This document shows positions 34,401 through 37,400 of a stretch of DNA of 60,710 nt, piece after piece. The position numbers were made by a program. Every line of letters starts with the position of its first letter. Position 1 is the first letter of the stretch. The DNA is from Fibrobacteria bacterium. GTDB taxonomy: Bacteria; Fibrobacterota; Fibrobacteria; UBA11236. Location: assembly GCA_050486505.1 (NCBI GenBank), contig JBJHDK010000006.1, positions 1-60,710 on the forward strand, in the 5' to 3' direction.

Positions 34401-37400
34401 CCTCCTGCGCACCGTGCAGGCGGTGGAGATGAGGGCGTTGTGGGAGATGGTCAATGCGAAATGAGAAATGAGAAATGAAAGGCGGTACCTACGGAGCATC
34501 TGGTGCGCGCGCGCCGCATTCCGTATTCCTGATTTCGCATTTCGCTTTTCTCTTTTCGCATTCCTTTTCGTCCTCGCCTCCCCCTCCCACGCCTCTTCGC
34601 TGCGCATCGCCACCTTCAACGTCTATTGGCTCACGGCGAATGCGGAGGAGTCGCGCCTCGCGCCATGGACCTCGGAAGAGGAACTCGCCGTCCACCGGCG
34701 CAACATCGCGCGCATTCTCGCGGAGCATGTCCAGGCCGACCTCGTCACCCTTCAGGAGGTCACCTCGCGCGCAGCGCTGGAGAAGCTTCTCGAAGAGCCT
34801 GCGCTTCGCGACATGGGCTACCGCCTGTTTCACGTCGAATCGGCGGACACATTCACGGGTCAGGATGTGGCCTTTTTAGTGGGGCCCCGCATCCGGCTCG
34901 ACCCGCTGGAGGGGGACACGATCGCGCGCTTCGCCGATACGCTTCCCGGCCGGCCCGCCGGGGTGCCGCGCGACGATCCGCGACGCCAACGCCTGACAAA
35001 GCACGCGATGGTCTGCGTGCGGGAACCCGGACCCGGCATCTGCCTGCTGGGCGTGCACCTGCTCGCCGGACCGGATGATTCCGCCCGCATGGCGCGGCGC
35101 GAGACGCAGGCGCGCATCATTACGCACCTTGTTCGCACCGAAATCCTTCCGCGCGGGTACGCGCCGATCGTGCTGGGGGATTTCAACGCCCGCGATCCCG
35201 ATGTCCCCGGAACACGGGGGTACGGCCAGGAGCACCGGCAGGCCATGCGCATCATCAAGGATTACGATCCGGATCGTCCCGGAAACGAGATGTTCAACGG
35301 CGTCAAGCGCAAGGCCCCATCCCTGCCGCGCCATTCGGCGTATTGGGACAGAAATCGCAACGGGCGATGGGACGAGGGCGAACCCGTGTCCCTGATCGAC
35401 CACATCCTGCTGGATTCCACGCTTGCGGGCAGGGTTGTCCGGGTCGAGATCCTGCACGAGGCGCATGACGGCAGCGTGTCGGACCACTGGCCGGTGGTGG
35501 TGGAAATCAATGAGAAATGAGAGCCGCAGGCATGAGGTCGCGCAGCGACCGAATCAATGCGGAATGAGAAATGGGAAAACCGCTTCCTTGACTTTCACGT
35601 ATCGATCCGCAATGACATCAATTTAAGAGAGAATGATCTATTGATGGCGTGGCAGGAACTTTGCAACAGTCAGAGCCATGCCTCCTCCTGCCCACGACAT
35701 CCAGATAAGAACCAAAGACTTTGCACTGCGAATCATCCGACTCGCGGCGTCGATTCCGGATACACCAATCGGACGTGTATTGGGACGACAGATCATCAGA
35801 TCTGGAACATCGGTCGGTGCTCACGTTCGCGAAGGGCGTCGCAGTCGAAGCGATCCCGAAATGCTCAGCAAAATTGAAGTCGCCTTGCAAGAACTGGAAG
35901 AAACCCGTTATTGGATGGAGCTACTGAGTGAAGCCGGCATGCTTGCCTCGACCCGGCTCGCCGATCTCCAGAACGAAGCTTCGCAATTAACAGCCATTCT
36001 CGTCACAAGCGCAAAGACGTTGAAATCCCGCCGAGCTGACAAGTTCGCTTCGTCCAGACGTCAGGACTGAAACCACCCCATCCATTTCTCATTCCGCATT
36101 TCTCATTCCGCATTTCCCATTTCCTACAACGACACACTCCAATACCACCCCTCCTGCCCGTCGCGGGCCCCCTCGTCGTCGTGAATCCGGCGGTTGCCGA
36201 TCACGACCCGCGGGTTGGGCCTCCAGTCGAACCCCAAGACCTTGAGCGGCGGCAGGGGGTACCCCCCGTCAAACACTTCGGAAGGGCTTCTGAAGTCCCC
36301 GCTGCGCGCCCGCCCGATGATGCGATGCACCTGCAGCAGGCTCAGTTCGAAGGATTGCGCCGTGTGCACCTCGGAACGCTCCCCGTCGCGATCTTCGAGT
36401 TGCCCGCGGCTGAAGCGGTATCCGAGGGTCCAGATGCTGTAGCCGTAGGTTTCCACCGAACGTGCATCCCCGGCGCGCCGGTGCACGGGCATTTCCCAAT
36501 CCGCGCCCCAGGCGATGTCCACGACATCGGCAAGCCGCAGGTTCAGGCCCAACGAAGTCCGCCGGAGGGAAGGCAGCGGATCGGAATTCTCCGGGACATC
36601 GTACACGACGTCCGGGCCGAGATTGACGAACGCAAGCCCCGCCGAAGGCGCGACGTCGAGCGAATGGAATCCGTCGAAGGCGAAGGGGCGGAAGCGCTGC
36701 AAGGCGAGCACGCCCACATCGAACGCCCATCCCTGCGCGCGTCCTGACGACCCCGTCCACAGGCGGCTGTCATAGAACTTGGCCGCCCCGCCGACACTGA
36801 CGGGGCTCCCCAATCGCACTGCGGCACCCAAGGCATGCACAGTCTCGTGGGGGCTAAAAGATGTGGGAAGAACCCCGGGGGGCGGGATTCCAGGCCCGAA
36901 ATCAAGGTGAGTCCGGGTGTAGGCAAACCCCGCATCGAACCCGCGGCGATTGTCGGGAATGACCAAGGCGGCACCGGCGAAATCGAACTGCCCGTTGCCC
37001 ACGTTCAGGTCCTCACGCGAACGGGAGAACTGCAAACGCGTCCCGGTCGCGGCGCCGATCTCGGACAACAGCGCCGGGTTGTAATACAGGCTCGCGGGGC
37101 CGGAAGGAATCGCGCCCCCGGTCTGCAACGCACCATAGCCGGACTCGCCAGGCGGCGGCATTTCAAGTGCAATGACGGCCGCACCGCCCTGGGCGAAGGC
37201 AGCCTGCGACAGCGGAGACAGCAACAGGACGGACAGCAGGGCGGAATAAAAACGCATGGGGGGAAGATAGGTCAAGGATGGATCGAGCGAGGGGAGAATG
37301 AAGGGAATACACGACCCGAATCTTCAAATAGGCGAAGCACCAACAGAAATACGGGAGTAGTTTAGCGAGATGAAAAAAGCAGATGTTTTGCGATTGGCCC

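Follow-up and report, generated by a model that had tools for sequence, protein, structure and literature searches.

The excess of heptamer repeats in bacterial genomes has gone unexplained for decades. PF05635 is a very common protein family with, to our knowledge, no known function outside diversity-generating retroelements. In Coxiella burnetii, the helix 45 intervening sequence (IVS) of 23S rRNA is described as an S23p ORF with a 28-bp stem and GACAGAT heptamers, in which RNase III cuts at mid-stem; production of S23p in vivo is considered unlikely (PMC4990558). The accessible part of that paper treats the IVS as an oddity of rRNA and mentions neither a general packaging outside rRNA nor a link between repeat unit and protein subtype (PMC4990558). 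The PF05635 family is also that of Avd (PMC10053308), which is reported as a pentameric, positively charged barrel that, with a partner enzyme, acts on structured RNA (PMC6182149). Heptamer arrays have been described separately: in Xanthomonas, GGGAATC occurs in 70-75 convergent inverted pairs with the potential to fold into stem-loops (PMC4692102), and intervening-sequence, S23 and four-helix proteins go unmentioned in the accessible portions of two papers that cover such arrays (PMC4692102, PMC4679880). Our literature search found no paper linking PF05635 genes, heptamer arms and intervening sequences.

The DNA analyzed here, referred to as the window, is a stretch of 60,710 nucleotides from a Fibrobacteria bacterium whose coordinates are those of the contig. 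As the initial annotation had claimed, it contains a PF05635 gene between heptamer arms (Table 1); the ORF, the arms and a 19-nt inverted repeat were all found. This cassette is flanked by an Exo_endo_phos gene on one side and a 383-aa ORF on the other. Like the ORF-bearing 23S rRNA IVSs of Coxiella and Leptospira, it has its ORF in the loop of a terminal-inverted-repeat stem of the ~20-30 bp class, and the kinship of build proposed earlier is borne out by the Coxiella IVS, which likewise combines a PF05635 ORF in a stem loop with heptamers (PMC4990558). Unlike a 23S rRNA IVS, the cassette lies between protein-coding genes, outside rRNA and hence not at helix 25 or 45. An Rfam scan of 34300-36300 detected no rRNA, yielding two chance pre-miRNA-like matches far under threshold. 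The window shares intergenic period-7 tandem arrays with Xanthomonas (GGGAATC), Nostoc (GGGGAYT, STRR) and Beggiatoaceae (TAACTGA), and its arrays form a convergent inverted pair as in heptamer hairpins of the Xanthomonas and cyanobacterial type; unlike those gene-less arrays, as the accessible text portrays them (PMC4692102, PMC4679880), those of the cassette hold a protein gene in their loop, from which the unit can be predicted.

Table 1. Features of the PF05635 cassette and of the adjacent ORF-less hairpin in the window.
Feature	Coordinates	Strand	Remarks
PF05635 (23S_rRNA_IVP / Avd-like four-helix-bundle) gene, subfamily B1	35678-36070	+	intact ORF, 130 aa
Inner 5' arm, AATGCGG AATGAGA AATGGGA AA	35556-35578	.	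fits B1 unit model (row L002)
Outer two units of cassette 5' arm, AATGAGA AATGAGA	35509-35522	.	pattern matches and inverted repeats
25-nt motif interrupting 5' arm, with a small separate stem-loop	35531-35555	+	fold and genome matches
3' arm, 6 units complementary to AATGMGR	36082-36124	.	TRF period 7/14, score 71
5' arm of neighboring ORF-less hairpin, AATGMGA, ~4 units	34453-34480	.	TRF period 7, 3.7 copies; pattern matches
3' arm of neighboring ORF-less hairpin, complement units	34514-34562	.	TRF, pattern matches

The window protein scored 68.4 bits against Pfam PF05635, above the gathering cut-off of 33.8, with residues 11-108 matching profile positions 8-104 of 106, and its ORF reached E 1.3e-18 in the genome-wide search for the family. 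Sequence comparison with PDB entry 2RLD gave an E value of 3.1e-18, while a profile built from 20 relatives retrieved 2RLD at 6e-35 and 2GSC at 2e-30; both of these solved PF05635 entries comprise five chains. The protein is basic, with a computed pI of 10.2. PF05635 was the only Pfam domain matched in the ORF, with no nuclease, transposase or recombinase domain, and a phage search with the protein produced two weak matches at 31-36% identity. By sequence, the protein belongs to the same homologous four-helix-bundle family as the Avd of diversity-generating retroelements; unlike the latter, its gene stands without an adjacent reverse transcriptase, and no PF00078 match was obtained in the 99%-complete genome or in the scanned neighboring ORFs.

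The inner 5' arm and the 3' arm, which begins 12 nt past the PF05635 stop codon, form an inverted repeat that is perfect over 19 nt and 91% matched over 23 nt, and the two arms base-pair in both the minimum free energy (MFE) and the centroid RNA folds. The 25-nt motif, which forms a separate hairpin in the RNA fold, separates these inner units from the outer half-array of the 5' arm, which overlaps the stop of the upstream gene. This half-array pairs with the outer 3'-arm units in the MFE and centroid folds, and inverted-repeat and fold analysis adds the resulting outer segment of 11-14 bp to the 19-bp stem. Fuzzy matching recovered the 25-nt motif 15 times in the genome, 12 times within the 5' arms of heptamer arrays, with one orientation throughout. 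A scan of 34350-36250 for sigma-70-like promoters found none. Among sequencing runs matched to 34300-37300 there was no RNA run, the one match being a DNA run that may be the source. The neighboring ORF-less hairpin (34453-34562) carries the same unit type as the cassette arms, and its 3' arm falls within the 5' end of the Exo_endo_phos ORF (34468-35520, PF03372 match); congener G001 has this hairpin at the corresponding position, and eight other congeners lack it. That any of this reflects chance or an assembly artefact can practically be dismissed, as no point was found in favor of it: the 23-nt arm sequence is unique in the window and occurred in none of 100 shuffles, unit-pair matches number 14 vs 0.48 expected, arrays are close to only 4 of the 250 contig ends, and hundreds of independent assemblies show the same layout.

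Both in congeners and across phyla, a pair of inverted heptamer arrays very often encloses the PF05635 gene, which upholds the wider claim of the initial annotation. A locus was counted as bracketed at an inverted-repeat (IR) score of at least 30, shifted windows in the same loci serving as controls. Among relatives, 23 of the 29 evaluable PF05635 loci reached this score compared with 0 of 100 controls. An alignment of 20 sequences across all subfamilies proved too diverse as a single search profile, and three subfamily alignments were used instead; the resulting samples from many phyla scored at 57/76, 53/63 and 69/77 loci vs 9/382, 3/360 and 3/421 controls (in total 179/216 vs 15/1163). A scoring IR was lacking at 37 of the 216 broad loci, at 6 of the 29 loci of relatives and at one copy in the genome studied here. 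This last point corrects the statement that all three PF05635 genes of the genome sit between complementary arms, which applies to two of the three, on contigs C6 (the window) and C44, where a perfect 18-nt inverted repeat surrounds the gene. The third, on C46, lies between same-strand arrays and has an IR score of 23, inside the control range, and no complementary arm pair was found at it. Exact inverted repeats of at least 18 nt with a spacer of 250-700 nt occur at four distinct loci of the 2.4-Mb genome, two of which enclose PF05635 genes (C6 and C44). PF05635 was detected in 87 of the 151 genomes sampled from the phylum and in 14 of the 31 relatives; Bacteroides thetaiotaomicron, in the control panel of the search, was positive as well.

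Such figures bear on the idea that gene and arms are independent features, the heptamer hairpins being generic, slippage-grown intergenic structures in whose loops PF05635 genes merely land or survive. The genome does hold 200 period-7 arrays, compared with 38 and 12 arrays of periods 6 and 8, respectively, together with some 44-45 ORF-less heptamer hairpins; ordinary genes can sit between two hairpins, for example on C19 and C1; and gene-less inverted heptamer pairs have been published for Xanthomonas (PMC4692102). The idea is nonetheless very improbable, given how seldom shifted control windows score, the plain spacers found at empty orthologous sites, and the fact that the protein subfamily predicts the unit type, in single phyla as well as in this genome.

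This last relationship is new here. The unit had been described as each locus's own, which is accurate for two to three positions; these vary around a core that is fixed by the protein subfamily, namely TYAGYnn for A, AATGATG for B1 (the window type) and nAATKnA for B2. The subfamily of the protein thus constrains the unit at each locus. Leave-one-out unit models assigned 140 of 148 arms to their subfamily (A 44/46, B1 37/41, B2 59/61), with comparable tallies inside Bacteroidota (A 9/9, B2 29/30), Acidobacteriota (A 10/12, B1 5/6, B2 1/1) and Planctomycetota (A 2/2, B1 10/10, B2 1/1). Within the present genome, C44 has ACAGCnn units and C6 has AATGMGR units. In the window's own genus, the A model is a poor match for the A-type arms, which have units like GACGGTA, GTCGGAC and GGGGGAC, and the A-type gene L008 carries B2-like units. 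Across phyla, 4-5 of the 7 unit positions are constant at 45-65% protein identity, a conservation that could partly come from co-inheritance. On the B1 protein tree, 13 unit-core changes were counted vs a shuffled mean of 17.8, with 0 of 2000 shuffles as low, and one B1 clade (SH-aLRT 86) contains AATG-type cassettes from at least eight phyla.

Chirality is fixed, the 'sense' unit always being in the 5' arm: 129 of 134 5' arms match the unit model in the forward orientation, and those of B1 are purine-rich in 37 of 38 cases. Arms have a median size of 4.4-4.6 units, as seen by a detector that misses arrays of fewer than about three units. RNase III requires about two helical turns. The units of the two arms mirror each other in order weakly better than in unit shuffles (median z ~1; 16 of 69 loci at ≤5%), so the stem may be a by-product of two same-unit arrays. 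Cross-arm identity at the variable positions was 0.77, 0.90 and 0.83 vs 0.69, 0.68 and 0.66 in a simulation of independent arrays, which was set aside as too lenient in view of the stricter unit shuffle.

An alternative centered on the stem holds that the arms matter just as double-stranded RNA (an RNase III site, terminator or insulator), that the subfamily-specific unit was frozen by accident and passed on with the gene, and that the role of the protein is unrelated to the arms, for instance as a reverse-transcriptase cofactor or in defense. The arms pair in the RNA fold, the IVS RNA of Coxiella is cut by RNase III and rated above the protein in importance by the authors (PMC4990558), Avd acts with a reverse transcriptase (PMC6182149), PF05635 genes are reported in cas loci (PMC3936711), and co-inheritance would likewise make the unit core follow the protein tree. 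We regard this alternative as rather unlikely even so. A stem requirement by itself leaves chirality free, yet nearly all 5' arms point forward, and it does not keep most of the unit constant across phyla while the remaining positions drift. The core is also kept in orthologous cassettes despite saturated synonymous sites, the mirror order of units is weak, and no reverse transcriptase was found in this genome.

Comparison of orthologous sites gave further insight into the history of the cassettes. At the nb-pheA site, present in ten congeners, a cassette occurs in two (G000 and G009), a solo array in one (G005), other ORF-less elements in three and a plain spacer of 20-34 nt in four; of the stages reported earlier for this site, these recur among the congeners. 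No ORF-less hairpin sharing the unit of the cassette was seen there. The G000 and G009 cassettes both have ACAGCnn arms, with a dS of 1.78 and a dN/dS of 0.16, and their protein is under purifying selection. At the EEP site, the B1 cassette is found in G000 and G010 and in none of seven others, the G010 ortholog at the same site being 62% identical to the window protein. Because the gene content of the EEP-uvrA interval differs in each congener, the comparison for the C6 cassette is one of presence and absence, without an exact junction. Orthologous cassettes and their neighbors have diverged to the same degree; the cassettes are therefore old and vertically kept. The other PF05635 genes of the genome are 12-24% identical to that of the window, the three being of different types, and are thus not recent copies.

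The insertion polymorphism at the nb-pheA and EEP sites is a feature of transposons and MITEs, and it invites the view that the cassette is an element at the DNA level, its arms being terminal inverted repeats or iteron-like sites in double-stranded or cruciform DNA to which the protein binds for excision and insertion by host enzymes, with RNA processing irrelevant. The variation among congeners at one intergenic site, which may be empty or carry a cassette, a solo array or elements whose units differ, agrees with this, as do close proteins with one unit type in at least eight phyla and GARTTNN arrays in 9 of 14 PF05635-positive relatives vs 0 of 17 PF05635-negative ones, these genomes being kin and not independent. 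ORF-less hairpins with a matching arm type and another core recall MITEs, and, as in MITE/autonomous pairs and REP/RAYT, gene-bearing and gene-less elements share the type of terminal repeat and not the core. Unlike these systems, the window ORF has no transposase fold, and the termini are tandem short repeats instead of one fixed inverted repeat. The view is unlikely considering the ORF's lack of a nuclease or transposase domain, the absence of near-identical copies among three genes of different types, the age and vertical retention of orthologous cassettes, and inspection by eye of one site, C44, at which no target-site direct repeat was evident.

The reading we prefer, and on the whole lean towards from the sequence evidence, is that of an IVS-like cassette whose stem would be a substrate of RNase III and whose pentamer-type protein would probably read the repeat core. 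That gene and arms constitute a co-evolving unit is its firmest part and very probable; the PF05635 gene and its two inverted arrays of 7-nt units would be inherited and transferred as one. In a transcript crossing the cassette, the arms would fold into a duplex of ~20-33 bp. Host RNase III, the gene for which is present in the genome, would cut this duplex and leave the insert insulated or excised, as in the intervening sequences of 23S rRNA; the case for and against such processing is evenly balanced. The same even weighting applies to direct recognition of the repeat, in which the oligomeric PF05635 protein would contact the conserved 4-5-nt core, probably on the single-stranded 5' arm, and thereby regulate its own expression or processing, assist the persistence or spread of the cassette, or both. 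Excision, binding and mobility are inferred here.

A more specific version, tentative and in our estimate doubtful, would make PF05635 proteins ring-shaped, probably pentameric readers of tandem heptamers, with one 4-5-nt core per subunit, two to three free spacer bases, about five units per arm and a code for each subfamily (TYAGY, AATGATG, AATK). By recognizing it, the proteins would govern their own IVS-like cassette and, in trans, the gene-less heptamer hairpins of the genome as well. The match between 4-5 units and a pentamer could be a coincidence. TRAP is an 11-subunit ring protein that reads spaced triplet repeats in the trp leader RNA. As a working analogy only, both would involve a cyclic oligomer, short cores separated by two to three free nucleotides and about one repeat per subunit; unlike PF05635, TRAP has an unrelated fold and combines 11 subunits with triplets, compared with the presumed five subunits and heptamers. 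A pentameric heptamer reader, if real, would give rRNA intervening sequences, the bacterial heptamer excess and free-standing Avd homologs a single cause. Should gene and arms be one unit with a subfamily code, the rRNA intervening sequence would become a special case of a widespread class of operon and spacer cassettes. For annotation, heptamer arms mark small genes overlooked by gene callers, and they predict putative cleavage points within operon transcripts.

The ORF-less hairpins of this genome share the B-type unit, which is present in 175 of the 200 period-7 arrays, the B2 model fitting 147. The window gene is the only B-type PF05635 gene found, and no B2-type gene was detected in this 99%-complete assembly despite the B2-type arms of the ORF-less hairpins. 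The initial annotation had proposed PF05635 cassettes as the protein-coding parent of these hairpins, a descent that we do not retain, as no homology in its favor was found: the hairpins have a conserved loop of ~90 nt of their own, a profile of which matched none of 32 PF05635 loci (L001-L032). A same-strand ORF starts 19-128 nt downstream of 28 of 42 such loops and a convergent ORF accompanies 34 of 42; this orientation was rejected as a signal, since crude ORF calls do not discriminate at 63% GC. A -35/-10-like motif was seen by eye in the ORF-less loops, which is our own reading of them.

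The PF05635 gene of the window (E 1.3e-18 in the whole-genome search), whose nearest solved relative is 2RLD (E 3e-18), lies between a 5′ arm and a 3′ arm, i.e., inverted arrays of 7-nt units, which together with the gene are referred to as a cassette. The arms share an inverted repeat of 19 nt when perfect and of 23 nt at 91% identity, and in the predicted RNA fold (MFE and centroid) the 3′ arm pairs over its entire length with both parts of the 5′ arm, inner and outer. We read this 5′ arm as once an array of at least five units, divided by a small insertion. The 25-nt motif between its two parts has 12 copies in the genome, each inside a GAATTNN or AATGNGN 5′ arm and in uniform orientation, and looks like a tiny insertion element targeting heptamer arrays.

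Coordinates of features in the genome of the window (window positions equal those on contig C6)
Feature	Position	Strand	Details
PF05635 (23S_rRNA_IVP) ORF	C6:35678-36070	+	intact; 130 aa; pI 10.2; 68.4 bits, cut-off 33.8
5′ arm, outer	C6:35509-35522		two further units
25-nt motif	C6:35531-35555		own small stem-loop
5′ arm, inner	C6:35556-35578		AATGCGG AATGAGA AATGGGA; upstream of ORF
3′ arm	C6:36082-36124		six complementary units, 12 nt past stop codon; TRF period 7/14, score 71
ORF-less hairpin	C6:34453-34480 + 34514-34562		unit type of the C6 cassette; 1 kb upstream of it
ORF	C6:33426-33824	-	132 aa; 600 nt upstream of this hairpin
Other copies of 25-nt motif	C5:61098, C5:48765, C11:47759, C16:5563, C21:30972, C21:31020, C26:9876, C29:20617, C37:13766, C80:1183, C105:3433
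ORF-less hairpins, examples	C21:32189-32345, C19:8444-8607, C1:63133-63290		GAATTNN or GAGTTAY arms
Hairpin adjoining C46 PF05635 gene	C46:11507-11600		period-8 units, (ACAGCAGT)n
Inverted repeat	C45:2629-3204		33 nt, perfect, GC-rich, REP-like, non-heptameric; encloses 101-aa minus-strand ORF
RNase III gene	C49:17585-17836 + C112:12-272		seemingly split over two contig ends

The genome (2.4 Mb, 63% GC) contains 200 arrays of period 7, whereas periods 6 and 8 account for 38 and 12, respectively, and about 45 ORF-less hairpins, which are heptamer-armed inverted pairs lacking an ORF, with GAATTNN or GAGTTAY as arm units. Where ordinary genes lie between two hairpins, long-range inverted repeats also arise, such as on contigs C19 and C1. 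Exact inverted repeats of at least 18 nt with a spacer of 250–700 nt occur at just four loci, two of which enclose PF05635 genes (C6 and C44). The initial annotation had all three PF05635 genes bracketed by arms; this holds for C6 and C44 and fails for C46, where same-strand arrays lie on both sides and the flanks carry no complementary arm pair. Period 8, seen in the hairpin beside the C46 gene, recurs at loci L179–L181, L051, and L096 from the wider samples, so arm periods besides 7 exist.

Flanking inverted repeats were scored by locally aligning the 300 nt upstream of a PF05635 match with the reverse-complemented 300 nt downstream of it and taking the best alignment; as controls, the same frame was shifted by 800–1600 nt inside the same locus. 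Scores of at least 30 were obtained for 23 of 29 loci from relatives and for none of 100 controls (largest 29). For the three protein subfamilies, sampled at one genome per species as the best-scoring loci of each search rather than as random draws (80, 70, and 80 loci kept for A, B1, and B2), the corresponding figures were 57/76 against 9/382 for A, 53/63 against 3/360 for B1, the type of the window, and 69/77 against 3/421 for B2; a few of these loci duplicate DNA of relatives' loci, e.g., L033 and L009, with identical arms. The best arm period was 7 in nearly all scoring loci, with a median of 4.4–4.6 units per arm (mode 4–5), a median aligned inverted repeat of 33 nt, and a median loop of 387–416 nt. 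Very long arms of 12–27 units are present in some cassettes (L127, L112, L179–L181), and a recurring spacer of about 24 nt breaks up the arrays of L127.

The heptamer unit follows the PF05635 subfamily, also inside single phyla and inside the genome of the window, which is a new result. Phase-aligned unit models read T-[C/T/A]-A-G-[C/T]-n-n for A, AATGATG for B1, and n-A-A-T-[T/G]-n-A for B2, each with 4–5 informative and 2–3 free positions, and leave-one-out assignment from arm to subfamily was correct for 44/46 A, 37/41 B1, and 59/61 B2 arms. By phylum, as labelled in record titles, correct assignments were 9/9 A and 29/30 B2 in Bacteroidota; 10/12 A, 5/6 B1, and 1/1 B2 in Acidobacteriota; 9/9 A and 2/3 B1 in Chloroflexota; 2/2 A, 10/10 B1, and 1/1 B2 in Planctomycetota; and 7/8 B1 and 2/2 B2 in Cyanobacteriota. 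The genome itself has ACAGCnn arms at C44 around an A-type gene and AATGMGR arms at C6 around its B1 gene. Exceptions are the A-type arms of this genus, which are idiosyncratic and poorly described by the A model, and L008, an A-type gene with B2-like units. The chirality of the arms is fixed: 129 of 134 5′ arms fit their own model in the forward direction, under models trained on these same arms with rotation permitted and reversal not, and 37 of 38 B1 5′ arms are purine-rich. Since a pair X...rc(X) is identical on both strands, X rather than its complement coming first is an intrinsic property.

A family of 110 aa yields weak protein trees, and the B1 tree is poorly resolved. On it, the unit core changes 13 times, whereas shuffling gives a mean of 17.8 with none of 2000 shuffles as low, and phylum changes 19 times compared with 22.4. 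AATG-type cassettes of at least eight phyla fall together in one B1 clade (SH-aLRT 86), pointing to horizontal transfer of the gene together with its arm type.

Unit-by-unit mirroring between the arms is weak. Free-position identity was 0.77, 0.90, and 0.83 across arms, values inflated by local alignment, compared with 0.61, 0.85, and 0.68 between adjacent units within an arm. In a stricter test, with units shuffled within a locus across both arms, observed pairing was modestly above the shuffles (median z about 1; 16 of 69 loci at ≤5%), and thus results mainly from having two arrays of one unit in opposite orientation. Given the conserved core with free spacer, the fixed chirality, and the approximately five units per arm, we propose that a PF05635 oligomer would read the repeat cores, while the arms in duplex form would be an RNase III site. 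RNase III is encoded in this genome; no reverse transcriptase was found there. PF05635 is described as the Avd family (PMC10053308) and Avd as a basic pentameric barrel acting on RNA (PMC6182149), and both solved PF05635 entries contain five chains. The Coxiella IVS, described in PMC4990558 with an S23p ORF, a 28-bp stem, GACAGAT heptamers, and mid-stem RNase III cuts, matches the cassette in build. Other sources report heptamer inverted pairs without genes in Xanthomonas (PMC4692102), TAACTGA repeats (PMC4679880), and the occurrence of PF05635 genes both in cas loci (PMC3936711) and within CPR bacterial rRNA insertions (bioRxiv 10.1101/2024.02.27.582315). Full-text searches of openly available papers returned neither a link of non-rRNA PF05635 genes with heptamer arms nor a subfamily-specific heptamer unit.

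Comparison of orthologous sites revealed that gain and loss affect whole cassettes, that a cassette can be old, and that the encoded proteins are under purifying selection. Upstream of pheA, an A-type cassette is present in this genome (518 nt) and in congener G009 (557 nt), with ACAGCnn arms in both, a dS of 1.78 (synonymous sites nearly saturated), and a dN/dS of 0.16. At the same site, a solo (GCTGTCC) array lies within a 51-nt spacer in G005, ORF-less inserts with units unlike those of the cassette are present in G004, G010, and G001, and G002, G006, G007, and G011 have plain spacers of 20–34 nt. The B1 cassette downstream of the Exo_endo_phos gene is shared with G010 at 62% identity (neighbour gene, 57%) and missing in seven congeners, none of which retains a leftover array. 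No mechanism-revealing junction was found at either site.

A profile of 21 loops recovered 44 copies of a conserved core of about 90 nt in this genome and none in 32 PF05635 loci (L001–L032). The ORF-less hairpins are thus a separate dispersed family rather than deletion products of any sampled cassette, which also counts against purely local slippage growth. Their arms are of B type: by unit model, the period-7 arrays divide into 147 B2, 28 B1, 2 A, and 23 unassigned. The 99%-complete assembly yielded no B2 gene, the gene of the window being its sole B-type PF05635 gene. Of the 31 relatives, 9 of the 14 PF05635-positive genomes carry GARTTNN arrays, as opposed to 0 of the 17 negative ones, which is no statistical proof because these genomes are kin. 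A MITE-like, in-trans relation between the PF05635 gene and the ORF-less hairpins is possible. The hairpin loop ends in TTCACA-N17-TTCAAT, resembling a -35/-10 pair directed towards the 3′ arm, and by crude ORF calls an ORF starts 19–128 nt downstream in 28 of 42 ORF-less hairpins.

The ORF-less hairpin of the window overlies the start of the Exo_endo_phos ORF, where its pyrimidine-rich 3′ arm would encode a hydrophobic, signal-peptide-like N-terminal segment. It occurs at the identical site in congener G001; in eight other congeners, both the short junction and the N-terminus are ordinary. The 132-aa ORF farther upstream gave weak transposase-type helix-turn-helix matches (HTH_Tnp_1, 21.7 bits, below cut-off).
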